Positions 9,397 to 32,038 are shown, numbered from the stretch's first letter. The stretch is 64,000 bases of DNA from Pseudomonadota bacterium (GCA_021324075.1 JAJPJW010000025.1:43306-107305), one strand, 5' to 3'. Notes: generated from the letters alone by a model not told the origin. Program-made: numbers and translations.

Positions 9397-12300
9397 TTGG
9401 CGATTTCCCTCTATTTAGGCCCCTACCAGCCCTTCCTCGAAAACGAACTTGCCGCGACCGTCCAAACCCTCCGTCAATCCGATCCCTTGTCACCCTTGGT
9501 TGTCTTGGTCCCCAACCGGGCCCTGGTCCGGCACCTGCGGGAGGAACTGGCCCGGAGGAACGGGTCGACTGTCAATCTGCGTGTCCTAACCCTGCACCAA
9601 TTCCTACTCGAATTCACCGAGGAAAAATGGATCCGGGAGGAAACCCGGCTCCTGCCCGAATCCATCGTTCCCTGGGTGCTGCGCGAGAACGCCAAGAAGG
9701 TCCGGCCCAAGGGCGGCGGGCCCTTTGCGGCGGTGGACAAGACCCCCGGTTTCCCCAAGACCCTGCGGGCCACCCTTTCGGAACTGCGCCAAGGGGGGGT
9801 CACCGCCAAGGAATTGGCCGAATCCGCCAAGGCTATCGGCAAAGCCCGGGACCGCAAGCGCCTGGGGGAGAAATTGGCCGAATTCGCCGCCCTTTTGGAC
9901 GAGAACGGGCGGTGGAAAGCCAAAAACCGTTGGAAGGATCGGGAAGACCTCTATGAGGACGCGCTGGACTTACCTGTTCCCGCCGCCGCCGTCTGGACTT
10001 ACGGGTTTTATGACGCCTCTGTTCTGCAACAAAAAGTTCTACTCCACTTAACCCAAAAACCTAGGATTGCCACGTCGCCAAACGCCCCGATTGGGGCGGC
10101 TCCTCGCAATGACAGTCATTGGTTCATCCCTTATGAAGAGGACCACCCGGCTTTCGAGTACGCGAAACCGTTCGTGGATTGGGCGAAGACGAAGGGAAAG
10201 GTGGCAAAGGTTGAAAAGTGGAAAGGTGAAAAGGGAACGGCCTTAGGAAGGCTGCAATCTGACCTATTTAAATCGGACGACTTAACTGAGATCACCACGC
10301 CCCAAAGCGCGCCGATTGGCGCTGGGGCTCGTGATGACGGCAATTTTGAAAATTCGACGGTCAAGGTCCTCCTTTGTCCCGGCGAACCCCGGGAAATGCG
10401 GGAAGTGGTGCGGGCCGTCACCGAGGAAGCCGAAAGGCGAAAAACCCACTTCTCCCAATGCGGGCTGTTGCTTCGACAACTGGAAACTTACCGGCGCATG
10501 ATCACCCCCGCCTTCGAGGACCAGCAAGTCCCTTTGGCGAAAAAACCCTCCATCTACCTGATGGAAACCCCCGAAGCCAAGGCCTTCCTCCTCTTGTTGG
10601 ACTGTTTCCAGTTGGAATTCGCCCGGGAAAGGCTGATGGACTTCCTGGCCTCTCCCAACCTGGACTCCGAGGGGTTCGGGGTGAGGGAAGAGGATTGGAA
10701 CCCCCATCTTTGGGACCAGGCTTCCAAGGAAGCGGGCGTGGTGGAAGGGGAGGGGGCCTGGATCGACCGGCTGAAAGAATACGAAAGGCCGAGGTCCGGC
10801 AAAGCCTCGTTTGACGAGGAGGGATTCTCAACGGGGGACTCCGCCTCCCTCTCGGCTTTCCGGGTGAAGGTGCTCCAAACGCTTTTCGACGCAAGGCACC
10901 GGTTTGACAAGGAAAAGAACTGGGTCGGGAAGGCGGGGATCCTTTTCGACCTGGCGGAAAAAATTTTCGTGAAGTCCGACGCCAAGGAAGAGTTGAAGAC
11001 CCTGCGGCGGGGCATGGAGATCCTTTCCCGGGAATCCTTCACGGTGGAGAAGGACGAACTGGGGGCCCTCCTCTCGGGGCTTATGGAAGAGGTGAAAATT
11101 CCCTGGAAGGCGCCCGAGGCGGGCGGGGTCGAAGTGTCGGACCTCATGCAGGCCCGGGGCGTGCCCTTCGACGTACTCCTCCTGCCCGGCCTGGTGGAAC
11201 AGGGTTTTCCCCGGGTACCCCGGCCCGACCCCCTGCTCCTGGACGAGGAGCGGCGCATCCTCAACGAGCGCTTTTCCGGCAAGGCCAAGGTGCCCGAAAA
11301 AGCCGAGGGGCGGCTGGAGGAGAAACTGCTCTTCCTGCTGGCGGTACGCGGCGCCCGGCAATGCGTCATCCTCACCGCCTCCCACCTGCACCCCGGCACG
11401 GGGGCGCCCCGGGTCCCTTCCAGCTACCTGCATGAGACCCTGCGGGCGGTCACGGGCGAGCGCCAAACGAAGTGGGGGGATTCCCCCTATGTCCGCAAGG
11501 TCGCGGTGTCCGATTGGGTGCGTGACGCGGGCGAGACCCGTGTGGACGACCTGGAAGAGGTCTTGAGCCGCTTCCAGGAAGCCCGGGAGGGAAATCCCCT
11601 GCCCGCCCAGGCCTATGCCGCCCAGAAGCCTTTTTTCGACGAGGCCCGGAAGCTCCTCAAGGAACGCCAGGGAAGCCGCAAGTTCACGCCCTATGACGGG
11701 GTCTTCCAGGACCCCGCCGCCGTGGAAAAACTCCGCCACGACTATTCCCTCAAGGCCAAGACCCTCTCGGCCTCGCGGCTGGAAACCTACGCCGCCTGCC
11801 CGCTGCGCTATTTCTACCGCTATGTGCTGGGGCTGCAGGTGCACCCCGAACCGGAAAGGGTTTTCCAATTGGACCCGGCGGAAAAGGGCAATCTCATGCA
11901 CTCGATCCTGGAAGAGACACTGGACCGGGGAAAGCAGGACGGCTGGCTGAAGGACCGGAACGGGGAAAAAGCAGCCCAGGCCCTGGCCGAAGAGACCCAA
12001 AAGACCTTCCAGCAGTTTGAAAAAGACGGGGTGACAGGCTCCCCAGCGCTCTGGCAATGGAGCCAGTTCAGCCTGGGCCTCGACTTACGAAAAGCCCTCA
12101 AGAAGGTCCTGGCGGATGAGGAATGGACCCCGGTGGACTTCGAAAAAGCCTTCGGCCGCGAAGGCCAGCCCGAGGTGACCTTTGAAACCCCGGCGGGGAC
12201 TTTCCGATTGGAAGGGTTCATGGACCGGGTGGACCTGTCGGCGGAGGGGAAACACTTGAGGGTGGTGGATTACAAATCCGGGAGCAAGGACGGGTTCAAG

Positions 12301-12657
12301 AACGACAGCGTGAAGGAAGGCACCAAGATCCAGATGCCGCTCTACCTCTGGGCCTGCCGCACCCTTTACCCCGGGGTCGTGCCGCAAGAGGCGGTCTATG
12401 AGTTCCTTACCGCCAAGGGCGATTATGGTTCCATCGGTTTCGACGCGAGTGATTGGAAAAAGGTCGAGGAACCCCTGAAGGCCCTCCTCACCACGGCGTC
12501 CGAAGCGGTGGAGCAGGGGTTGTTCCCGGCGGTCGCCAAGGCGTGCGACCGGTGCGATTACCGGACCCTTTGCGGGCCAGGGGTGGAGAAGCGGGGGGAA
12601 AGAAAGTTAAGAGATCAAAAATTAGAAAAATATTTGAAGTTGACCGAATTGCCATAA
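9397..12657 (+). CDS. addB: AddB-type PD-(D/E)XK nuclease subunit of helicase-nuclease complex (no Walker A), with C-terminal Fe-S cysteine cluster
   Basis: Nuclease motifs SRLETYAACPLRYFYRYVLG and VVDYKSG. Cys cluster CDRCDYRTLCG plus the upstream Cys completes a 4-Cys AddB-like Fe-S signature. ~1086 aa. Confidence 0.65.
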   Translation: MAISLYLGPYQPFLENELAATVQTLRQSDPLSPLVVLVPNRALVRHLREELARRNGSTVNLRVLTLHQFLLEFTEEKWIREETRLLPESIVPWVLRENAKKVRPKGGGPFAAVDKTPGFPKTLRATLSELRQGGVTAKELAESAKAIGKARDRKRLGEKLAEFAALLDENGRWKAKNRWKDREDLYEDALDLPVPAAAVWTYGFYDASVLQQKVLLHLTQKPRIATSPNAPIGAAPRNDSHWFIPYEEDHPAFEYAKPFVDWAKTKGKVAKVEKWKGEKGTALGRLQSDLFKSDDLTEITTPQSAPIGAGARDDGNFENSTVKVLLCPGEPREMREVVRAVTEEAERRKTHFSQCGLLLRQLETYRRMITPAFEDQQVPLAKKPSIYLMETPEAKAFLLLLDCFQLEFARERLMDFLASPNLDSEGFGVREEDWNPHLWDQASKEAGVVEGEGAWIDRLKEYERPRSGKASFDEEGFSTGDSASLSAFRVKVLQTLFDARHRFDKEKNWVGKAGILFDLAEKIFVKSDAKEELKTLRRGMEILSRESFTVEKDELGALLSGLMEEVKIPWKAPEAGGVEVSDLMQARGVPFDVLLLPGLVEQGFPRVPRPDPLLLDEERRILNERFSGKAKVPEKAEGRLEEKLLFLLAVRGARQCVILTASHLHPGTGAPRVPSSYLHETLRAVTGERQTKWGDSPYVRKVAVSDWVRDAGETRVDDLEEVLSRFQEAREGNPLPAQAYAAQKPFFDEARKLLKERQGSRKFTPYDGVFQDPAAVEKLRHDYSLKAKTLSASRLETYAACPLRYFYRYVLGLQVHPEPERVFQLDPAEKGNLMHSILEETLDRGKQDGWLKDRNGEKAAQALAEETQKTFQQFEKDGVTGSPALWQWSQFSLGLDLRKALKKVLADEEWTPVDFEKAFGREGQPEVTFETPAGTFRLEGFMDRVDLSAEGKHLRVVDYKSGSKDGFKNDSVKEGTKIQMPLYLWACRTLYPGVVPQEAVYEFLTAKGDYGSIGFDASDWKKVEEPLKALLTTASEAVEQGLFPAVAKACDRCDYRTLCGPGVEKRGERKLRDQKLEKYLKLTELP

Positions 12658-12684
12658 ATGTGAACGAAAAAGGGATTTGAATTA

Positions 12685-14310
12685 ATGAACGATGACATCA
12701 AAATTTTAATTGAATTACTTAATGCTGAAGGGCGACCTGATATTTCAGAAATTTTTCAAAACGCAGTAAGTGAGCTTAGGGTTTCAGATCAATATGGGAG
12801 TTACTTATTTTCTTTAATTTCTAGTTTTTTAATTTATTTGCCACCGAAAGCTTACGTAAAAGCAAAAAAATTAAAAGAAGAAGACATCAAGTTAATTTTG
12901 GAGTTAGTTTGTGGAATATATCCTTTACAAGACAATGAACCGGAAGTTGTTAAGATCGAATTCATAGTTCAAAAAAATTACTCAACCCAAGAAGTAACAA
13001 ATCAAAAGACATCTAATTCTCGAAAAGAACTTTATTCATTGAAAGGTTTAATTGGAGATGGTGGTTTTGCCGAGGTTTTTGAGGCTGTGGGAAAAGACGG
13101 TAAGATTTATGCCATGAAGTTTTTAAGGGAAGGTCATGATGAAGAAGATATAAAAAGATTCAAACGAGAAGTAAGAATTCAATCTACTTTAAAACATAAC
13201 AACATTGTTTCAGTAATTGACATGGATCTTGAGGCGGATTCTCCTTGGTTTCTAATGCCGAAAGCTTATTTCAATTTAGAAGATTATCTGAAGAAGAATT
13301 ATGGAGAAAGGGAAATACCATTATTTTTTCAAATAGCTGAAGGTGTTTCTTTCGCTCATTCGCAAGGAATTATTCATAGGGATTTGAAACCTTTAAATGT
13401 ATTGATGTTTCCAAGTCAAGATGGAGAAAGCCTTTTTCCTGCAATATCTGATTTTGGTTTGGGCAAAATAATTGAAGGTGATTCTCCCGCGGTAACTTAT
13501 TCAAACACCCCTATTGGAACGATTGGATTTGTTGCACCTGAACAAATTGTAGATGCTAAAAATGCAAGAGAATCAGCAGACATTTATTCTTTAGGAAAAA
13601 TTTTATATCAGATTCTTTCCGGAAAAAATCCTTACCCATCTTTAGACTTTGAATCTTTTCCCAAGAAGTTTTTTTATTCAATTAATAAAGCTACCAACAA
13701 TGATCCAAAACAGAGATACCAAAGTGTGAAAGAATTTTTGGGGGATATTGAATTATTAACTAAAAAAGATATGGAATTTGAAGAGTCTTCGGAAAGTATT
13801 TTAAAAAGAGCCGACGAATTAAAAGAAACTAGTCGTGTTTCGAGCGAGGAGGTAGAAAAATTCGTCAAAACACTCTTTGATATAACTGAAAATAAAATCG
13901 CAATGATTAGGACTCTACCCAAAATACCAGAGCTACTTTTGAAAAGAATGGTAGAAGAACAACCAACGATGTTTAGAGAAATTCTAAAATCCTATGAGTC
14001 ATATATTGATGAAGTTAGTTTTGAATATTGTGATGTTGTTGCCGATCTATATAAAAAAATTTTCTTTTGGACAAATGACAAAGACGTTCAGTTTATAGTC
14101 TTGAAACGCTTGCCAATTCTTGGACTCTCGCATAATCGTTGGCATGTTGGAGAAGTATTTGCTGAATTAGTTCAAAGTTTGAAAGAAGAATCTTTAATTT
14201 TGTTTACAAGAGATGTTTTAAATGAAAACAAACGCGGAGCCGAATGGTGTGAAGCATATCTTTCAAGAGTAAATATTCCGAAACTTGTTAGAAATATATA
14301 TACAAAATGA
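12685..14310 (+). CDS. Hanks-type Ser/Thr protein kinase with unknown N-terminal (~115 aa) and helical C-terminal (~190 aa) domains; strongly AT-rich foreign gene
   Basis: All catalytic motifs are present: GDGGFAEV (Gly loop), YAMKF (Lys), HRDLKPLN, DFG, VAPE, DIYSLG. The gene is roughly 30-35% GC in a >60% GC neighbourhood. Confidence 0.85.
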   Translation: MNDDIKILIELLNAEGRPDISEIFQNAVSELRVSDQYGSYLFSLISSFLIYLPPKAYVKAKKLKEEDIKLILELVCGIYPLQDNEPEVVKIEFIVQKNYSTQEVTNQKTSNSRKELYSLKGLIGDGGFAEVFEAVGKDGKIYAMKFLREGHDEEDIKRFKREVRIQSTLKHNNIVSVIDMDLEADSPWFLMPKAYFNLEDYLKKNYGEREIPLFFQIAEGVSFAHSQGIIHRDLKPLNVLMFPSQDGESLFPAISDFGLGKIIEGDSPAVTYSNTPIGTIGFVAPEQIVDAKNARESADIYSLGKILYQILSGKNPYPSLDFESFPKKFFYSINKATNNDPKQRYQSVKEFLGDIELLTKKDMEFEESSESILKRADELKETSRVSSEEVEKFVKTLFDITENKIAMIRTLPKIPELLLKRMVEEQPTMFREILKSYESYIDEVSFEYCDVVADLYKKIFFWTNDKDVQFIVLKRLPILGLSHNRWHVGEVFAELVQSLKEESLILFTRDVLNENKRGAEWCEAYLSRVNIPKLVRNIYTK

Positions 14311-17300
14311 GTTATTGGAAAAAATTGTGATTTCAGACCAATCCGTTCGGGACCAGGTCATCCATGACCACGAAAGCCTCTTCGCGGTGGACGCGGGGGC
14401 GGGAACTGGCAAAACGACGCTCCTGGTGTCCCGGCTCATCTCGCTGCTCCTGGAAAAGCAGGCGCCCTTAAGCCGCATCGCGGCCATCACGTTCACTGAA
14501 AAGGCTGCCGCCGAACTGGCTGAGCGGTTGCGCTCCAAACTCGAAGAGGCTTTGGGGAAACATCCCGAATCCAAAACCCCTATTCCTCAAGCATTGGAGG
14601 ATATGGAGCGAGCTCCCATTTCCACCATCCACTCCTTCTGCGCGGGGCTCTTGCGGGAATACCCGGTGGAGGCGGGGGTGGATCCCCAATTCACCCTTTT
14701 GGACGAGGTTCAATCCGGGGCCTTCGAGGACCAGGCCTGGGACCATTGGCTCAAGAAGAACCTGGCGAAACCGGTCGAACCCATGTTCCAGTTCTTCCGC
14801 TTGGGCGGCACCTTCGAGCATGTGGATGAACTCAAACAGTTTCTAAAGCGCAACCGCACCCTTTTGACTTTGGCCTCCCCCAAACCCCTGCCTTCCGTGA
14901 AATCTTTCCATGCCCAGTTCAGCACCTTCGTGGCCTTAACGAAGCGGGAAGCCGCCCAATGCGCCAAGCATGAAGACACCCTTTATGAAGCCCTCGAATC
15001 CTTTTGGGCCCAATGTGCGACGATTGAGGGATCGGATGCGGGTGACCTGGACTTCGCCTTGGCAAACCTGAAGGTCCCCAAGGTCGGCAACAAGGGCGCC
15101 CAAGGCAATTGGGGGAAAGAACGGTTGGCGGCACTACGCGAGGGGTTCGTGAAGCTGGCGGAGGACCACCAAACGGCCTTCGCTCCCTTCAAAGAGGCGG
15201 TCATCCTGAACCTGGTCCACTGGGTTGGGAGATACTTGGAGGAATGGGAAAGCCAGAAGGCCCAAGGTGGCTTCCTTGACTTCGACGACCTGCTCCTGAA
15301 GACCCGCGACCTCCTGCGGAATTACCCCGAGGCCCGGGAAGAAATAAAGGGCCGGCTCGACTATCTTTTCGTCGATGAGTTCCAGGATACGGACCCGCTC
15401 CAAGTTGAGATCGTCTTCTTCCTCTGTGAAAAAAAGGGACGGCCCGAAAAGGATTGGAAAAAGGTGAAGCTGGAACAAGGGAAGCTTTTTCTCGTCGGTG
15501 ACCCCAAGCAAAGCATCTACCGTTTCCGGCGGGCGGATGTGGCCATCTACGAAGCCACCAAGGAGCGAATTCTGGCCAACGGGGGCAAGGTCGAGGTGCT
15601 CACCGAAAACTTCCGGACCGTAGGCGGGTTGGTGGAATGGGTCAACGGCTTGTTTCCCACCCAATTCGAGGGGACAGGCATCCACTATCACGCCCTCAAT
15701 GCCAGCCGGGCGAAGGGAAAGACCGAAGGAAGCCTGCCCATCCTCTGGGGCTTGAAGATACCGGCGGCGGGGGAAGAAAAGCCCAGCAAGGCCCTCCTCC
15801 GGCAGCTCGAAGCCGAAACCGTGGCGGCCTTCCTCAAAGACCAAGTGCTCGGCGGCGGGTTCACGGTGTCGGACCCCAAACCCCCTTTCGAGAGGCGTCC
15901 GGTGCGCAAGGGCGATATCGCCATCCTTTTCCGGGACCTCTCCAACGACAACGAGGAATTCTGGGAGGAAGCCCTGCGCAAGCGCGACCTGTCCTACCAG
16001 ATCGTCGGCGGCAAGCGTTTCTACAACCGGCCTGAGATCGTGGCCCTTTCCACCCTTTTGACCTGCCTCTCCTCGCCCGCCGACGAGGCGGCCAACGTCG
16101 CGGTGCTTCGCGGGCCTTTGTTTGGCTTCAGCGACGAGCAATTGTTCCTCCACCGCGCCGGGGGTGGAAATTTTCAATTCCTAAATCCTTCAATCTCAAA
16201 AACAGGCACCCCTCACCCTGGCCCTCTCCCGCAAGGGGAGAGGGGAAATATTAAATTGGCTTTTGTTTACTTGAGGAAATGGCACCAAGCCACCCGGACC
16301 CTGGGGGTGTCGGACACCCTGGCCAAGCTCTATGAAAGCACCAACCTGCTCGCGGTCACGGCGGGCCAGCCCCATGGGGAACAACGCGTGGCCAATTTGA
16401 TGAAGGTCTTGGACCAGGCCCGGGACCTGGAGACTTCCCAACATTTCACCTACCGGGCCTTTACCCAGTGGCTCACCACCCAACAAGAGGAAGGGACGAT
16501 GGAAGGCGAAGCGCCGGGTCCCGATTCCTCCGAGGACCGTATCACGCTCATGACCATCCACAAGGCCAAGGGTTTGGAGTTTCCCATCGTCTTCGTGTCG
16601 GGAATCGCCGCCGACCCCAAGGATTCGGGGAGCCTGGTGGATCGCAAGCATTCGGCGGGCGCCTTCAAGGTGGGCAAGGCAGAGCTGGGTTTGCGCACGA
16701 CGAATTACGAGGCCGTACAGAAAGAGGAGGAAACCCAGCGCAAGGCCGAGGACAGCCGCCTGCTTTACGTGGCCGCCACCCGGGCGAGGGATTGCCTACT
16801 CCTGCCGCATTTTCAATTTACCCCAGGGGGCAAGACCCAGAATGAGAGCCTCTTTGCGGGGCCGCTTCTAAAGGCATTGGAAGAAAAAAACGCTCCCACC
16901 CATTGGGCCGAATCAAAAGAAGGTGAAGAACCTTTGAGCGATCCGCCCGCCTGGGTGGTGCCCCTGGACGAAAAACCAGGCAAAGCTTTGGAGGATGAAA
17001 AAACGAAACTGAAAACCGGGCAGGAAGCCCGCAAGAAGAAAATCGAGGAGATGAGGGGGGAACGCCAATTCAAGTCCGTCAGTTCGGTCCTCCATGTGGA
17101 CGAGGACAAGAAAGATCGGGAAGAACGGGTTTTCGAGGAGCCCGAAGCCGCCTCGCCCTGGGGCGGGAAAGACCTGGGGTCCCTCACCCACCTGCTTTTG
17201 GAAAAGGGATGGGACTGGGACGGGGCGACCTTTGAAAAAGGCGCCGCCTTTTACATTGAGAAAATGGGAATGACGCCCGAACAGGCGGCCCAAGCCTTGG

Positions 17301-17620
17301 ACTGGGTGAAAAAAGCCCTCCAGAGCGACCTCCTCCAAAGGGCCAAAAGATCCGGGAAGGCTTTCCGTGAACTGCCGGTTACCGGCCAAAACCCCGATGG
17401 TTCCTTCTTGAACGCCGTCATCGACCTGGCCTTTTTGGAAGGGGACGAATGGGTGGTGGTGGATTACAAGACCGACCGGGACACGGAAAAACTCAAGGAC
17501 AAGTACCGCCAACAACTGGTCTACTACGGCGACCTCCTGACCCGGTTCACCGGGAAGAAAGTCAAAGAAGCCCACCTTTATTTCCTCCGGCACGACCGCG
17601 TGGACCCCGTTTCTCTTTAA
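14285..17620 (+). CDS. addA: AddA-type ATP-dependent helicase/nuclease (UvrD-like helicase plus C-terminal RecB-family nuclease)
   Basis: Walker A AGAGTGKTT; UvrD motifs; C-terminal nuclease VVVDYKTDR. The track start at 14285 is TTG and overlaps the kinase stop. The conserved N-terminus (SDQSVRDQVI...) suggests the real start is TTG 14315 or GTG 14329, where GC content returns to host-like. Confidence 0.75.
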   Translation: MLEIYIQNELLEKIVISDQSVRDQVIHDHESLFAVDAGAGTGKTTLLVSRLISLLLEKQAPLSRIAAITFTEKAAAELAERLRSKLEEALGKHPESKTPIPQALEDMERAPISTIHSFCAGLLREYPVEAGVDPQFTLLDEVQSGAFEDQAWDHWLKKNLAKPVEPMFQFFRLGGTFEHVDELKQFLKRNRTLLTLASPKPLPSVKSFHAQFSTFVALTKREAAQCAKHEDTLYEALESFWAQCATIEGSDAGDLDFALANLKVPKVGNKGAQGNWGKERLAALREGFVKLAEDHQTAFAPFKEAVILNLVHWVGRYLEEWESQKAQGGFLDFDDLLLKTRDLLRNYPEAREEIKGRLDYLFVDEFQDTDPLQVEIVFFLCEKKGRPEKDWKKVKLEQGKLFLVGDPKQSIYRFRRADVAIYEATKERILANGGKVEVLTENFRTVGGLVEWVNGLFPTQFEGTGIHYHALNASRAKGKTEGSLPILWGLKIPAAGEEKPSKALLRQLEAETVAAFLKDQVLGGGFTVSDPKPPFERRPVRKGDIAILFRDLSNDNEEFWEEALRKRDLSYQIVGGKRFYNRPEIVALSTLLTCLSSPADEAANVAVLRGPLFGFSDEQLFLHRAGGGNFQFLNPSISKTGTPHPGPLPQGERGNIKLAFVYLRKWHQATRTLGVSDTLAKLYESTNLLAVTAGQPHGEQRVANLMKVLDQARDLETSQHFTYRAFTQWLTTQQEEGTMEGEAPGPDSSEDRITLMTIHKAKGLEFPIVFVSGIAADPKDSGSLVDRKHSAGAFKVGKAELGLRTTNYEAVQKEEETQRKAEDSRLLYVAATRARDCLLLPHFQFTPGGKTQNESLFAGPLLKALEEKNAPTHWAESKEGEEPLSDPPAWVVPLDEKPGKALEDEKTKLKTGQEARKKKIEEMRGERQFKSVSSVLHVDEDKKDREERVFEEPEAASPWGGKDLGSLTHLLLEKGWDWDGATFEKGAAFYIEKMGMTPEQAAQALDWVKKALQSDLLQRAKRSGKAFRELPVTGQNPDGSFLNAVIDLAFLEGDEWVVVDYKTDRDTEKLKDKYRQQLVYYGDLLTRFTGKKVKEAHLYFLRHDRVDPVSL
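16165..16272 (+). repeat. Family 2-related element (AT-rich arms plus CCCCTCACCCTGGCCCTCTCCC-GCAAG-GGGAGAGGGG) lying in frame inside the addA ORF
   Basis: ~108-bp low-GC patch inside addA translating to GGNFQFLNPSISKTGTPHPGPLPQGERGNIKLAFVYL. Its left half matches 7123-7144 at 19/22. Confidence 0.4.
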
Positions 17621-17650
17621 CTTTCGGCGGTCGTTCAATTTGAATCGACG

Positions 17651-17745
17651 CCCCCTTTGAAAAAGGGGGGAGGGGGGTATTAGCCTTTGTCTGGGCGAAA
17701 TGATAAGTCTAACTCCCTCTTAGTCCCCCTCTTTCAGAGGGGGAG
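17651..17745. repeat. Family 1 repeat, solo copy: G-tract hairpin CCCCCTTTGAAAAAGGGGGGAGGGGGGTATTAGC plus second hairpin CCCCCTCTTTCAGAGGGGGAG
   Basis: Near-identical copies at 24126-24212 and 25596-25630; an inverted copy at 25982-26018. Confidence 0.6.
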
Positions 17746-17776
17746 AACAGGGGATATTTCAAATTCACCCACTCTA

Positions 17777-19912
17777 TTAATTATCCAGTCCCCATTGCCC
17801 CATTTCCTTTTGGAGCCAGGCGTTCCCTGGTGAAAGCTTCAGGGCCTTTTGGAAAACGGCCTTGGCCTCCTGCTTTTGCCCCTCGAGCGCCAAGAGCCTC
17901 CCGAACTTCTCGCACAATTCCAGGTCCTGGTAGCTCCGGTCGAAGGAGGCCCGGAAGAGGGGTGAAAACCGGGGCCAATCGGACCCTGCCTCGCCGGGGT
18001 AGAAGGTCGTTTCCCAGGCGTAGTTGTACAAAAGCTTTTCGAAAAAGCACGATTGCAGGAAAGGGTCCGCCGGAACGGAAGGATAGACACGGGCCATGTC
18101 CGCCAAGAGGGGCACCCTTCCTTTGCCGTTCGGGAGGTCCATCGCCTGGAAGTTGAACCTGTGGTAATCCGCGTAAAAAGAATTCCAAGCCAGGAAAAGC
18201 GGGCGGTCCGGGGCGGAAATGGGAAAGACACCCAGGACATAGGGGTTTTGGGCGCCGGATTTGGTCCCCGGAAATTCAATCCAGCGCGCACCGGGGAAAC
18301 GGCTCTTGAGGAAGGGTTCGTAATGGGCCTCGGTAAAAAGGCCGCACCAGGACGCTTTTTCCGGTGAAAGGCCCGGATTCATGGCCGCGTTAAAAGGGAA
18401 GCAATAGAACGAGAGGGAATAATCGTCGACGGCGGGGATCATTTCGGGGAAAACCAATCCGGGCCCGAACCTGGAGGAAAGGGTTTCCAGGACGGCGTAG
18501 CTTTCCTTTTTCTCCCGGACCGTTTCCGTCCCCGGATTTCCGGGAAAGAAAGAACGCCCCAAGTCCAGGCCGCAGGAAATCAGGAGCAGCAGGGCTGCCG
18601 CCCAGGCCCTCCCGCGCGGGGGAAAAACGAAGGCCAGTGCTCGGACCCCCAATGTTGAAACCAGGATGAGCAGGGGCAGGACCAGGAGCACACGGTTGGG
18701 CTCCATGCCGTTGGAAAGGAAGCCCGGCGTCATCAAAATCAACAGGCCCGCCCCCGAAAGAAACAAGGGAAAGCGGTCCCGGGAACGGACCAACTCCATC
18801 ATTCCCAAGAAAAAGAAGGATGCGGAAAAAAGGTTCAGGAACCCGCCGCCATGAAGCGGGCCCTTGGGCCCCAGGTTCCAGAAGAGGGTGTAAAGGTATT
18901 GCAAAATGATCCTGGCCTGGGAGAGGACTGAAAAATTCCTCCAAAACCCGACTTTCATCAAATGGCCCCCATAGCCTTCCTGTCCCGCCGCCACCAGGAA
19001 GGGGACCAGGGCCAAAGCGAAGGAAAGGCCGAACCCGATCCATGGACCCGGGCCCCTCCGGGGCTTGGACCTTAGTTTCCAGGCCGCCAGCCCCAGGACC
19101 ACCGGCACCAGGGCGGGCCAGCAGGGAAAGGTGAAGGGACCCAGTCCCAAGGCAAAACCCAGGAGCCCGCTTTCAACCTGCAGGGAGGAAGAGGGCGGGG
19201 CCTTGAGGAACCACGCCAATAAATAAAGGACCAGGCTTTCCCAAAAAAGCAGGCAGAGGAGGTTCCGGGAGGCCTGTAAGGACCAAAAGTTGAGGGCGAA
19301 CAAGGCCAGGAAAAGCAGGGCGAAGGAGGCGGGAAAGCGCAATCGGACCGCCTGGTAACCCGCCAGCACCGCCCCCAGGGCCAACAAGGTGGCGGGCAAT
19401 TGGTAGGCCCAGAAGGGGGAATGGGTGAGCTTCAGGAAAAACCAGCAAAGGTAACAGCCCGTGCTGGGCGTCTGCCCGAAGGTGACAAACAAGCGCAGGT
19501 TCCAGTGCCGAAGAAGGTCCAGGGCGTATAGACCGGGTTGGATCTCGTCGCCGCCCTGCCACCGGGCGGGGGACCCCAAGCCCCAAAAATAAGCGACGCC
19601 GAGGAGGGGCAGGAAACCCAGCAGGAAAGGGAGCAGGGGCATTTCCACGTCGGTCCCGGCCAGGGGTGACGGCGTTCTTTCGCCGGGCGGCAGGGTTGCG
19701 GCGAAGACGACCAGGGGAAGGGCGAGCCCGAATAAGAGGACGGAAAATTTGGCGGCCAGGGACCAGGAGGTCTCCGCCACAAGGATGTTGGAAAGGGTAA
19801 AAAGAAGGAAATAGGGCCAGGGGTGGTAGGGAAGGTAAAGGTCCGACTGGAAAATTTTTTTCATTTGTTTTCCAACCCCAGGCATTATTGAAAAGAACCG
19901 GGCTTTTTCCAA
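17777..19912 (-). CDS. Polytopic membrane protein with C-terminal TPR-like soluble domain (GT-C-fold glycosyltransferase candidate)
   Basis: More than 10 predicted TM helices, an acidic DE motif in the first loop (GDEIQPGLY), and a C-terminal ~250-aa soluble region ending in TPR-like helices. Confidence 0.4.
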   Translation of the reverse strand: MEKARFFSIMPGVGKQMKKIFQSDLYLPYHPWPYFLLFTLSNILVAETSWSLAAKFSVLLFGLALPLVVFAATLPPGERTPSPLAGTDVEMPLLPFLLGFLPLLGVAYFWGLGSPARWQGGDEIQPGLYALDLLRHWNLRLFVTFGQTPSTGCYLCWFFLKLTHSPFWAYQLPATLLALGAVLAGYQAVRLRFPASFALLFLALFALNFWSLQASRNLLCLLFWESLVLYLLAWFLKAPPSSSLQVESGLLGFALGLGPFTFPCWPALVPVVLGLAAWKLRSKPRRGPGPWIGFGLSFALALVPFLVAAGQEGYGGHLMKVGFWRNFSVLSQARIILQYLYTLFWNLGPKGPLHGGGFLNLFSASFFFLGMMELVRSRDRFPLFLSGAGLLILMTPGFLSNGMEPNRVLLVLPLLILVSTLGVRALAFVFPPRGRAWAAALLLLISCGLDLGRSFFPGNPGTETVREKKESYAVLETLSSRFGPGLVFPEMIPAVDDYSLSFYCFPFNAAMNPGLSPEKASWCGLFTEAHYEPFLKSRFPGARWIEFPGTKSGAQNPYVLGVFPISAPDRPLFLAWNSFYADYHRFNFQAMDLPNGKGRVPLLADMARVYPSVPADPFLQSCFFEKLLYNYAWETTFYPGEAGSDWPRFSPLFRASFDRSYQDLELCEKFGRLLALEGQKQEAKAVFQKALKLSPGNAWLQKEMGQWGLDN

Positions 19913-19945
19913 TTAAATTCCTGCCCGATGGTAATAAAATAGGCC

Positions 19946-20917
19946 ATGCCCCACGACCACAGCCACGAACACGAACATTCCCATAGCCGCGCCGGTTTTC
20001 CCCACGGCCATTCCCACGGCGACGCCGGCCACGACCATTCCCACGGATTCTCCCGCCGCAGCCAGATGCTTTGGGCCATCGGCATCACCGGCTCCATCCT
20101 CGTCCTGGAAGTGATCGGCGGATTCCTTTCCCATTCCCTGGCCCTCTTGTCCGACGCCGGCCACATGCTCACCGACCTGGCGGCGCTCTCGGTTTCACTG
20201 ACCGCCATGATCATGGCTGAAAGGCCCGTCAGCGACCGCCACACCTACGGTTTCGCCCGCCTGGAAGTGCTGGCGGCCTTCGGCAACGCCCTGACCTTCT
20301 TCGTCATGGTGGGGGCGGTGGGATGGGAGGCCTTCCAGCGGCTGGCCACGCCCGCCCTGCCCGACTGGAAGACCATGGGCCTGATCGCGGCCATCGGGCT
20401 TTTGGCCAACGTGCTTTCCGCCTGGTTCCTGCACGGGGCGCATGAGGACGACCTGAACATGAAAAGCGCCTGGGTGCACGTGATGGGCGACCTGGCCTCA
20501 TCGGTGGGGGTCCTGGTGGGAGTGGCGGTCATCGCCAGGACCGGATGGACCTGGGTGGACCCCCTGCTCAGCATTGGCATCGCCGTTTTGATCGCGCTGA
20601 GCGCCTTCAAGCTTTTCTGGAAAGCCCTTCACATCCTGCTGGAGTCGGCCCCCCGGGGGCTGACGCCGGAAAAGATCAGTTCCTGCCTGACCTCCCAACT
20701 GCCCCAGGTCAAGGAAGTGCACCACGTGCACCTTTGGGAAGTGGGCTCGGGGGAGATCCACCTGACGGCCCACGTCGTCGTGGAAGACCAGCCCTTAAGC
20801 CGGGCCCAGGATGTCCTGGAGAAGGCCGTGCAGAACCTGGCCAAGGACTGCGGCATCCACCACGCCACGCTTCAGTTGGAAGTGCCGGGGCAGGAATCCA
20901 AAGAGAAGCCTGAGTGA
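19946..20917 (+). CDS. czcD: Cation diffusion facilitator family divalent-metal exporter (CzcD/ZitB-like) with His-rich N-terminus
   Basis: HSLALLSDAGHMLTD metal-binding-site-A motif, six TM helices, C-terminal cytoplasmic domain, and a His-rich (HxHxH) N-terminal leader. Confidence 0.8.
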   Translation: MPHDHSHEHEHSHSRAGFPHGHSHGDAGHDHSHGFSRRSQMLWAIGITGSILVLEVIGGFLSHSLALLSDAGHMLTDLAALSVSLTAMIMAERPVSDRHTYGFARLEVLAAFGNALTFFVMVGAVGWEAFQRLATPALPDWKTMGLIAAIGLLANVLSAWFLHGAHEDDLNMKSAWVHVMGDLASSVGVLVGVAVIARTGWTWVDPLLSIGIAVLIALSAFKLFWKALHILLESAPRGLTPEKISSCLTSQLPQVKEVHHVHLWEVGSGEIHLTAHVVVEDQPLSRAQDVLEKAVQNLAKDCGIHHATLQLEVPGQESKEKPE

Positions 20918-30988: not shown

Positions 30989-32038
30989 TCAGGGCGCGGC
31001 CAAGTCGAATTTTTGGACGCGGTGGTTTTCAGCGTCCACCACGAAGACGGAGCCGCCGGGGCCGAAGGCCAAGGCGGTGGGCCGGTTGAACTGCCCCTTT
31101 TGGTTTCCCGAATCGCCCCACTGCCCCTCGAACCCCAGGTCCGGCCCGAAAACCTGGATGCGGTTGTTGCCGTCGTCGGCCACGAAGAGGTTGTCCTGGG
31201 CATCGAACTTCAAGCCCTGGGGATGTTCGAACTGCCCGGGCGAGGAGCCCCTTTCCCCGAGCACCGAGAGGAACTGGCCGGCCCCATCGAACCGTTCGAT
31301 CCGGTTGTTGTTGAAGTCGGAGACGAAGACCTCGCCGGCCTTGTTGACGTCGATGCCCACCGGCCAATTGAACTGCCCGTCGCGCCCGCCCAGGCTTCCC
31401 CATTGAAGGAGATAATTCCCGCCCGTGTCGAACTTCTCAATCCGGTGGTTCCACTGGTCCGTCACGTAGACCCCGTCCCCGTGGATGGCGATGTCGTGGG
31501 GCTTGTTAAACTGGCCGTCGCCCTGGCCCGGAGTGCCCCATTGCGAAAGGAAAGCCCCAGAGGGATCGAACTTCTGGACCCTGGAATTGCCCGAATCCAC
31601 CACGTAAATGGCGCCGTCCCCGCCCACGGCAATGCCCAGGGGGGTGTTGAACTGGCCGCTTTGGTCGCCACAGGTCCCGAAGGAAAACTGGAATGATCCC
31701 CAGGAATCGAATTTTTGGACCCGGCAATTATGCCAGTCGGTGACCAGGGGAAATCCCTTGGCGTCCACGGCGACACCGATGGGCTCGCGGAACTGGCCAT
31801 TGTCCCCGCCCTCGCCGCCCCAGGAACTTTCAAACCGGCAGCTGACGGAAGCCGGCTTGGAGGAAGGCCTGGAACCTGAGAAACGGCCGGCCTTCGCGAA
31901 GAAAAAATAATAGGCGCCAAAGCCCAGGAGAAAAACGGCCAGGAAGAGGATGAGGACATTCATGAAGGTGAGGTCGATTTTGGGGGGGGAAGGGGGTTGG
32001 GGATCTAATTCCGGCATAGGGGTCCTCCTTATATACAT
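30989..32038 (-). CDS. NHL-repeat (6-bladed beta-propeller) protein with N-terminal membrane anchor
   Basis: Repeated xYVxDxxNxRIxKF units (VYVTDQWNHRIEKFD, VFVSDFNNNRIERFD, LFVADDGNNRIQVFG, VFVVDAENHRVQKFD). Confidence 0.75.
   Translation of the reverse strand: MYIRRTPMPELDPQPPSPPKIDLTFMNVLILFLAVFLLGFGAYYFFFAKAGRFSGSRPSSKPASVSCRFESSWGGEGGDNGQFREPIGVAVDAKGFPLVTDWHNCRVQKFDSWGSFQFSFGTCGDQSGQFNTPLGIAVGGDGAIYVVDSGNSRVQKFDPSGAFLSQWGTPGQGDGQFNKPHDIAIHGDGVYVTDQWNHRIEKFDTGGNYLLQWGSLGGRDGQFNWPVGIDVNKAGEVFVSDFNNNRIERFDGAGQFLSVLGERGSSPGQFEHPQGLKFDAQDNLFVADDGNNRIQVFGPDLGFEGQWGDSGNQKGQFNRPTALAFGPGGSVFVVDAENHRVQKFDLAAP

Follow-up and report, generated by a model that had tools for sequence, protein, structure and literature searches.

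A stretch of 64,000 nucleotides (nt) from a Pseudomonadota bacterium (GCA_021324075.1 JAJPJW010000025.1:43306-107305; hereafter the window, in which all positions are counted from the first letter) carries a foreign, horizontally acquired gene for a Hanks-type (eukaryotic-like) Ser/Thr protein kinase between its addB-like and addA-like genes. The gap between these two genes is a lineage-specific hypervariable insertion hotspot. The kinase is probably a stand-alone, three-domain protein of the abortive-infection (Abi) type, a variant of the Stk2/PD-T4-6 kind that was acquired horizontally and resides in this hotspot. The locus is laid out as follows (aa, amino acids; ORF, open reading frame).

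9397..12657, + strand: addB-like gene, 1086 aa; left border of the variable slot
12658..12684, + strand: spacer of 27 nt from the addB stop to the kinase ATG; foreign segment with no counterpart in relatives
12685-14310, + strand: kinase ORF, 541 aa, ATG start, TGA stop
12685..13032, + strand: N-terminal part of the kinase, aa 1-116 (aa 1-100 module, aa 101-116 low-complexity linker)
13033..13839, + strand: catalytic domain of the kinase, aa 117-385; Hanks-type Ser/Thr, catalytic residues intact
13840..14310, + strand: C-terminal part of the kinase, aa 386-541, with the stop codon; HEAT/ARM-like helical repeat
14311..14326, + strand: spacer of 16 nt from the kinase stop to the homology-supported addA start
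14327..17620, + strand: addA-like gene, 1097 aa from GTG 14327; right border of the slot

The three-part layout given in a first-pass annotation of this DNA (an N-terminal part of ~115 aa, a kinase domain and a helical C-terminal part of ~155-190 aa) holds, as does its statement that all catalytic motifs of the 541-aa kinase are intact. Pfam Pkinase (PF00069) aligns with aa 117-399 (E value 1.4e-41, 143 bits against a cut-off of 31.7), and the Hanks motifs are present as the Gly loop GDGGFAEV, K145 (AMK), E162, H231-R232-D233-L-K235-P-L-N238, D256-F257-G258 and A-P285-E286. The catalytic residues are mostly invariant across 15 family members, with the Gly loop as the exception, and the ORF is predicted to encode an active enzyme. 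The C-domain (aa 386-541) is a HEAT/ARM-like helical repeat with the family motifs FEYCDVVA and SHNRWHVG, inside which lie the invariant positions Y448, D450, A453, N484 and R485. Searches of the PDB by sequence with the C- and N-domains returned nothing beyond designed repeats, or nothing. The 541-codon ORF is uninterrupted, and the ratio of nonsynonymous to synonymous substitution rates (dN/dS), taken between the four full-length homologues wherever dS was estimable (most pairs being saturated), does not exceed ~0.15 in any of the three domains; the whole protein is therefore under purifying selection. As had been proposed, the protein is unlike housekeeping kinases of the PknB type: it has no PASTA domain in Pfam and no transmembrane segment, and assignment to PknB/Stk1 was rejected with NF033483 at 149 bits against a cut-off of 450, over positions 9-208 of 563 only.

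The kinase ORF has a GC content of 0.322, within the ~30-35% of the first-pass annotation, and a third-codon-position GC content (GC3) of 0.229. The corresponding values are 0.607 and 0.760 for addB and 0.586 and 0.732 for addA; the claim of an operon above 60% GC thus applies to addB and fails for addA (58.6%). Against a background of 586 segments of the same length from the rest of the 64 kb (mean GC 0.586, standard deviation 0.033, minimum 0.485), the ORF lies 8.1 standard deviations below the mean, and the window has no other large AT-rich island, its remaining AT-rich segments being far shorter. Nucleotide homology to every relative ends at 12650-12659 and restarts at 14328, and none of the related addAB loci compared carries the kinase. 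The identical protein (100%) is found on three other metagenome contigs from different datasets, only in the same addB-kinase-addA order. Horizontal acquisition, already suspected in the first-pass annotation, is thus borne out by composition, homology breakpoints and relatives without the kinase; the pattern that would have spoken for a native gene, relatives universally carrying it at host-like GC, is not seen. Two other accounts of the insert were rejected: AT-rich insertions throughout the genome (the only other notable patch in the window is 580 nt long) and a phage origin (a phage collection gave matches to the kinase domain only, at identities of at most 34%).

The flanking genes have the make-up of an AddAB pair, being adjacent genes that encode a helicase with a nuclease (AddA) and a RecC-like protein with a Cys-cluster nuclease (AddB). 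AddB comprises an inactive-helicase/RecC-like region followed by a C-terminal PD-(D/E)XK nuclease with the Cys motif CDRCDYRTLC, and matches PDDEXK_1 (1.3e-40), ADDB_N and Exonuc_V_gamma in Pfam; AddA matches UvrD-helicase (1.9e-54), UvrD_C and, at its C-terminus, PDDEXK_1. The matches to the NCBIfam equivalogs addB_Gpos (1e-28) and addA_Gpos (1.4e-95) all stay below cut-off, which fits a divergent phylum. The addB stop codon occupies 12655-12657, and the C-terminus of AddB is kept up to the stop codon in all relatives; the last ~50 nt of the gene are AT-rich, yet they are conserved Lys/Glu-rich coding sequence and lie outside the insert. The addA start was placed at GTG 14327 (M-ISDQS...) by comparison with 14 relatives, MISDQS being conserved from residue 1, and two of three public gene calls concur. 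The kinase start (ATG 12685) had correctly been set 27 nt after the addB stop. The described overlap of the kinase stop with the addA start applies only to TTG 14285, the start of the longest ORF, whereas the homology-supported GTG lies 16 nt downstream of the kinase stop and leaves the addA ORF intact.

The slot was surveyed in 15 distinct loci of the uncultured, FCPU426-like lineage, including the window, taken from genome and metagenome scans with AddA. The N-termini of AddA in the relatives are 68-91% identical, and one locus is labelled candidate division FCPU426. In two of the loci (L013 and L016) the slot is empty and the addB TGA overlaps the addA TTG as TTGA; it is also empty in a distant relative (L022, 37% identity). 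Each of the remaining 13 loci holds a different same-strand ORF, with a cargo GC of 0.28-0.40 against 0.51-0.60 in the flanks (the GC of the whole gap is 0.43-0.46 in three loci that also carry a toxin-antitoxin (TA)-like pair). The check recommended earlier, whether addB and addA are normally adjacent, thus found direct overlap in two of 15 loci and other cargo in the remaining relatives. The cargo is usually one same-strand ORF of 145-541 aa.

Window: 541-aa kinase
L020: 216-aa HEPN_AbiV protein (PF18728, 1.4e-14)
L019: Sel1-repeat protein (4e-44)
L006: TPR protein
Remaining loci: ORFans with signal peptides or membrane segments

All-against-all BLASTP showed the cargos to be mutually unrelated, apart from Sel1-like repeats common to L011 and L019, and the idea that they are divergent versions of one gene was discarded on this ground. 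The cargo start codon overlaps the addB stop in seven of the 13 occupied loci, where addA has a fresh start after the cargo. Occupancy varies even between loci with very similar AddA proteins: L019 holds the Sel1 protein, and its AddA is 93% identical to that of L013, where the slot is empty; the window and L004, its closest relative by AddA (90% identity), hold different cargos. Because the gap holds a different foreign gene in almost all relatives, the position of the kinase reflects the hotspot and not a link to DNA repair, and we infer that its placement in the operon marks a landing site rather than the target of the kinase.

In three loci the AT-rich cargo is followed by a degenerate duplicate of the 5'-terminal ~70-140 nt of addA, with ~90% identity to its intact counterpart; a TA-like module comes next, and then the intact addA.

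L004:10001-11012: degenerate addA 5' duplicate and type II TA pair (PhdYeFM and PIN, confirmed by Pfam)
L005:10001-10833: degenerate addA 5' duplicate and a two-gene module with only a weak CcdA-like match
L011:6236-6909: degenerate addA 5' duplicate and type II TA pair (RHH and PemK, confirmed by Pfam)

These duplicates suggest a second insertion event that regenerated the 5' end of addA. With regard to mobility, neither inverted nor direct repeats flank the insert in the window (matches of 12-25 nt are at chance level) and there is no transposase between addB and addA; a transposon or insertion-sequence origin was rejected for want of flanking inverted repeats, target duplications and a transposase. 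Cargo and addA overlap by 4 nt at one extreme and are ~67 nt apart at the other, which leaves no room for most attC sites, and no conserved element is common to the cargos, for which reasons an integron cassette was also rejected; no integrase is noted in the ORF lists near addAB, no integrase/attI profile search having been made. One 15-nt direct repeat touches a boundary of the insert, and it is the only one to do so: its copies, identical at 14 of 15 positions, lie ~200 nt inside addB (GAGTGATTGGAAAAA at 12447-12461) and immediately after the kinase stop (GAGTTATTGGAAAAA at 14309-14323), and it is probably due to chance. Other indels near addA do occur among the relatives.

A search of the literature for an addAB hotspot found nothing relevant. 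Hotspots for defence and accessory genes that are flanked by core genes have been described in the E. coli pan-genome (PMC10121019). The slot resembles them in its fixed position between conserved genes, in its low-GC foreign cargo, which varies from strain to strain or is missing, in the defence genes among that cargo (kinase, AbiV, TA pairs) and in the lack of a mobility gene in the cargo; it differs in being internal to an operon, at the overlapping stop and start codons of two subunits of one enzyme.

Residues 1-100 of the kinase form a modular alpha/beta domain of the AbiJ N-terminal domain (AbiJ-NTD) type, with a KH/DnaA-domain-I-like fold. A profile search of 1.84 billion representative proteins found the module in 135 of them, nearly always at the N-terminus. 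Its partners in the 134 other proteins are TIR_2 (42), Abi_C (27), TIR (21), caspase (2) and HEPN (2), and further include restriction endonucleases (REases), AAA_15/21 (PtuA-like ATPase), CAP12-type TIR, ThsB-TIR and one other kinase. In comparisons with PADLOC, which throughout are profile matches of the protein as distinct from coverage-ruled system calls, several of these fusions match the AbiJ, ThsB, PDC-S66/RT-TIR and PtuA/PDC-M01A models via their effector halves, and three of them (P0134, P0145 and P0127) match AbiJ at up to 1e-29. The N-domain alone has no match in Pfam, including the AbiJ_NTD models, and aa 1-116 give nothing in PADLOC at E<=0.001. A tblastn search of plasmid AbiJ genes found nothing with the N-domain, and with the AbiJ-like P0134 found a match limited to the HEPN half.

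Fusions of AbiJ-NTD modules to TIR, REase, ATPase and protein kinase domains have been described, together with the proposal that the module senses a viral component and restrains the C-terminal toxin (Anantharaman et al. 2013, PMC3710099). The kinase has the architecture of this class of AbiJ-NTD plus effector proteins; its N-module gives no match to the Pfam AbiJ_NTD models. The resemblance to AbiJ lies in a ~100-aa N-terminal alpha+beta module common to Abi_C/AbiJ-type HEPN proteins (27 of 134) and in the swapping of that module onto TIR, REase, ATPase and kinase effectors as described in PMC3710099. The kinase differs in that neither Pfam nor PADLOC finds Abi_C/HEPN in it, the kinase and HEAT-like domains taking that place.

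Full-length homologues form only three other 90%-identity clusters, at 71, 63 and 62% identity, and the subclade that adds the N-module to the kinase and HEAT-like domains therefore amounts to four clusters, including the gene in the window. The wider family consists of hundreds of ~430-aa proteins from diverse bacteria and one archaeon, which have the kinase and the C-domain without the first ~115 residues. Its distribution is patchy: as a single gene of low GC, it turns up in unrelated operons, in defence islands and on plasmids. Nine chromosomal or contig contexts and one plasmid context were examined, and addAB adjoins the family member in none of the ten. The three closest full-length homologues are preceded by AbiE or an unknown gene, P0002 (71% identity) and P0004 (62%) lying 27 nt downstream of AbiEi/AbiEii. 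The equality of this spacing with that in the window is a coincidence, because the leader sequences are unrelated; a shared 27-nt leader was rejected for the same reason. Within 8 kb of P0002 lie GmrSD, a DNA methylase, HNH and NERD. Elsewhere, P0025 adjoins a Gabija-like OLD-TOPRIM and UvrD pair and a HEPN/nucleotidyltransferase pair, P0055 is inside an integrative element, and plasmid relatives occur in Streptomyces, Rhodococcus and on small Acinetobacter plasmids.

L007:6277-17629: defence island around the 71%-identical homologue, with AbiEi/AbiEii, kinase, HNH fragment, extracytoplasmic-function (ECF) sigma factor, RadC, GmrSD, DNA methylase and HNH
L028:2856-4880: kinase plus C-domain relative (~30% identity) on the 10-kb Acinetobacter schindleri plasmid p4AsACE, with a PP2C phosphatase directly after it and BrnT/BrnA beside it
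L030:7001-8281, L031:7001-8314, L025:7001-8290 and L026:7001-8368: solo low-GC family genes in housekeeping operons

Upstream in the L007 island there are also a NERD protein and a deaminase. The arrangement in L028 suggests that some family members form kinase/phosphatase pairs of TA-like character. Among the housekeeping settings, one family gene starts 3 nt after hisA, ahead of hisF (GC 0.29 against 0.45), so that insertion within operons looks typical of the family and is not peculiar to addAB; others follow directly on dnaX-ybaB-recR, on aconitase (with a Y1 transposase next) and on dnaK, the last ~2.4 kb upstream of ruvCAB. On chromosomes the GC content of the family gene lies 5-16 points under that of the flanking DNA; the gap is small in the AT-rich L027 (1-4 points), and the gene is not low in GC on the plasmid L028.

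PD-T4-6 is a single-gene Ser/Thr kinase defence of E. coli. It provides the most populated set of PADLOC matches to the window kinase, with more than 20 models (series PDLC04039-04064), of which the best, PDLC04042, gives an E value of 1e-45 over aa 113-350 (profile 7-241 of 292). The two are alike as single-gene kinases; the matches span only aa ~110-350, and no model covers the N-module or the HEAT-like domain. Stk2 is activated by the phage protein PacK, leading to abortive infection. It constitutes a single-gene Ser/Thr kinase abortive-infection system of Staphylococcus (Depardieu et al. 2016, summarised in PMC11341870), and its PADLOC model PDLC02375 matches with an E value of 3.6e-38 and 129.6 bits (aa 119-496 against profile 126-486 of 500). 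Both proteins are host-encoded, single-gene and cytoplasmic, with a Hanks kinase between a ~120-aa N-region and a C-region, and by analogy the action proposed for both is the same, a trigger-activated broad phosphorylation. They differ in their accessory parts, which in the window kinase are a module like the AbiJ-NTD and a HEAT-like repeat; essentially all of the Stk2 score is contributed by the kinase domain, and neither the N-module nor the C-domain gives an Stk2 match on its own. The top-scoring PADLOC model is mad6 (8e-50, 168 bits, aa 96-321 against profile 32-260 of 659), in which only the kinase core aligns; a MADS system was rejected, with NCBIfam NF047741 (antiphage_MADS6) at 92.2 bits against a cut-off of 460 and no other mad genes flanking. 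CapK, the 'DNA-damage-activated kinase', is an anti-sigma-type kinase and unrelated.

We therefore favour, with moderate confidence, the reading of the window gene as a horizontally acquired Abi-type kinase. The PADLOC matches, the AbiE, GmrSD and Gabija-like neighbours of the homologues and the partners of the N-module speak for the candidate defence function put forward in the first-pass annotation, as does the cargo of the slot elsewhere, which includes an AbiV HEPN protein and TA pairs. The word 'new' in that proposal was too strong, since the combination of an AbiJ-type NTD with a protein kinase was already predicted as a conflict system in 2013 (PMC3710099). By analogy with Stk2 (PMC11341870) and from the hypothesis for the NTD (PMC3710099), the kinase would be kept inactive by its flanking domains in the uninfected cell; a phage component, protein or nucleic acid, would bind the N-module and/or the HEAT domain and release the kinase, which would then phosphorylate many host and/or phage proteins and stop the infection, as for Stk2. 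The + strand of the insert showed nothing resembling a terminator or a promoter, and for this reason the kinase gene probably owes its transcription to read-through along the addB-addA operon.

Several observations weigh against this interpretation. The similarity to validated defence kinases is confined to the kinase domain, which is generic, and the C-domain alone matches no PADLOC model (nothing at E<=0.1); the top NCBIfam match by score is the housekeeping Stk1/PknB profile, far below its cut-off. The N-module is not assignable to AbiJ-NTD1-5, given the missing Pfam AbiJ_NTD match and the null tblastn result, and the family of kinase plus HEAT proteins is known from sequence alone. Four of the nine chromosomal or contig contexts are plain housekeeping, with no defence genes adjoining the kinase, and most slot cargo (proteins with signal peptides, membrane segments, Sel1 or TPR repeats) bears no recognisable mark of defence. 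Finally, co-transcription is argued from missing consensus sites, and that consensus may not be the one used in the phylum of the host.

Among the alternatives, it is unlikely that the kinase is a selfish or accessory gene without an antiphage role, either an addiction-type toxin or a niche signalling kinase hitchhiking into the hotspot. Such a gene would fit the TA-like pairing of the Acinetobacter plasmid relative (~30%) with a PP2C phosphatase, the accumulation of TA pairs at the slot between addB and addA, the many slot cargos without a defence signature and the several family members that stand solo among housekeeping genes. The kinase in the window, however, adjoins no phosphatase or other partner, its neighbours being addB and addA; the partners of the N-module are overwhelmingly immune effectors (TIR, HEPN, caspase, REase), and the closest homologues are embedded in defence islands.

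Coupling to AddAB, as suggested in the first-pass annotation, appears distinctly improbable. The kinase would regulate or guard AddAB, phosphorylating AddA or AddB to tune end resection, or, in a variant, would detect that a phage is inhibiting AddAB and set off abortive infection by virtue of its co-expression from the same operon. The exact placement of the gene at the addB-addA junction, in the orientation of both neighbours and with no terminator-like or promoter-like site in the insert, agrees with this idea, as do two family members near repair genes (recR and, at ~2.4 kb, ruvCAB); looser thematic hints come from lactococcal AbiJ, escape mutants of which map to phage single-stranded-DNA-annealing proteins (review, PMC13064643), and from the DnaA-domain-I-like fold of the N-module. 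On the other side, addAB is missing from all nine contig contexts and the one plasmid context of homologues, the nearest full-length homologues have AbiE or an unknown gene ahead of them, and the family is also found wedged between hisA and hisF. The slot itself holds 12 unrelated cargos in relatives and is empty in two, the closest AddA relative (90%) has a different cargo, and several cargos are secreted or membrane proteins, unable to act on cytoplasmic AddAB. The present evidence thus gives no indication of a new regulator of DNA end resection.

A related suggestion concerns the slot as a whole: in this lineage the codon overlap of addB and addA may serve as a special site within the operon for single-gene cassettes, whose cargos would be recruited there through a tie of their expression or function to the AddAB enzyme. 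We give this little credence. If it were true, the cargos might be guards that fire when phage inhibitors disable AddAB; in another version, AddAB-dependent recombination at its own gene might create the hotspot, and could then also account for the exact junctions and for the duplicates of the addA 5' end.

That the gene is a decaying passenger, a recent, non-functional or silenced fragment acting mainly through polar disruption of addB-addA translational coupling, would suit its extreme compositional mismatch, the breaking of the ancestral stop/start overlap (TTGA) by the insert and the quick cargo turnover in the lineage, but is very improbable given the intact 541-codon ORF with all catalytic residues, the dN/dS of at most ~0.15 against homologues in all domains, the 100% identical protein on three contigs from different datasets and the intact addA ORF starting 16 nt downstream.

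Further features were observed elsewhere in the window. Directly downstream of addA (window 17590-19963) lies a PMT_2/TPR glycosyltransferase-like gene of 711 aa (ORF 17777-19912, - strand), which is strongly divergent in relatives and apparently missing in L011 (~160 nt instead of ~2.5 kb); this region is a second variable spot beside the addAB operon. A second AT-rich patch (1921-2500, 580 nt, GC 0.39) between GC-rich genes contains an 87-aa ORFan (ORF 2084-2347, + strand) that is membrane-embedded by appearance, and may be another small foreign insertion. At 31549-31637 (- strand), ARAGORN called an 89-nt 'tRNA-???' with a two-base anticodon (ta); the structure is tRNA-like but atypical, or else the call is spurious.

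The kinase plus HEAT family, recognizable by its FEYCD and HNRWHVG motifs, comprises hundreds of uncharacterised members in bacteria and archaea, and the kinase described here may represent a third kind of defence by a lone kinase gene, to be added to Stk2 and PD-T4-6. Its four-cluster subclade illustrates clearly how, in nature, different effectors come to be joined to one and the same putative sensor. Of the two results, the slot inside the operon, cassette-like in character, is more original than the kinase: it is a compact, sharply bounded hotspot, with 13 cargos in 15 loci that are often start-codon-coupled to addB, and it can be mined for new small defence and accessory genes. It also poses the question of how promoterless single genes are exchanged so precisely with no visible mobility machinery.

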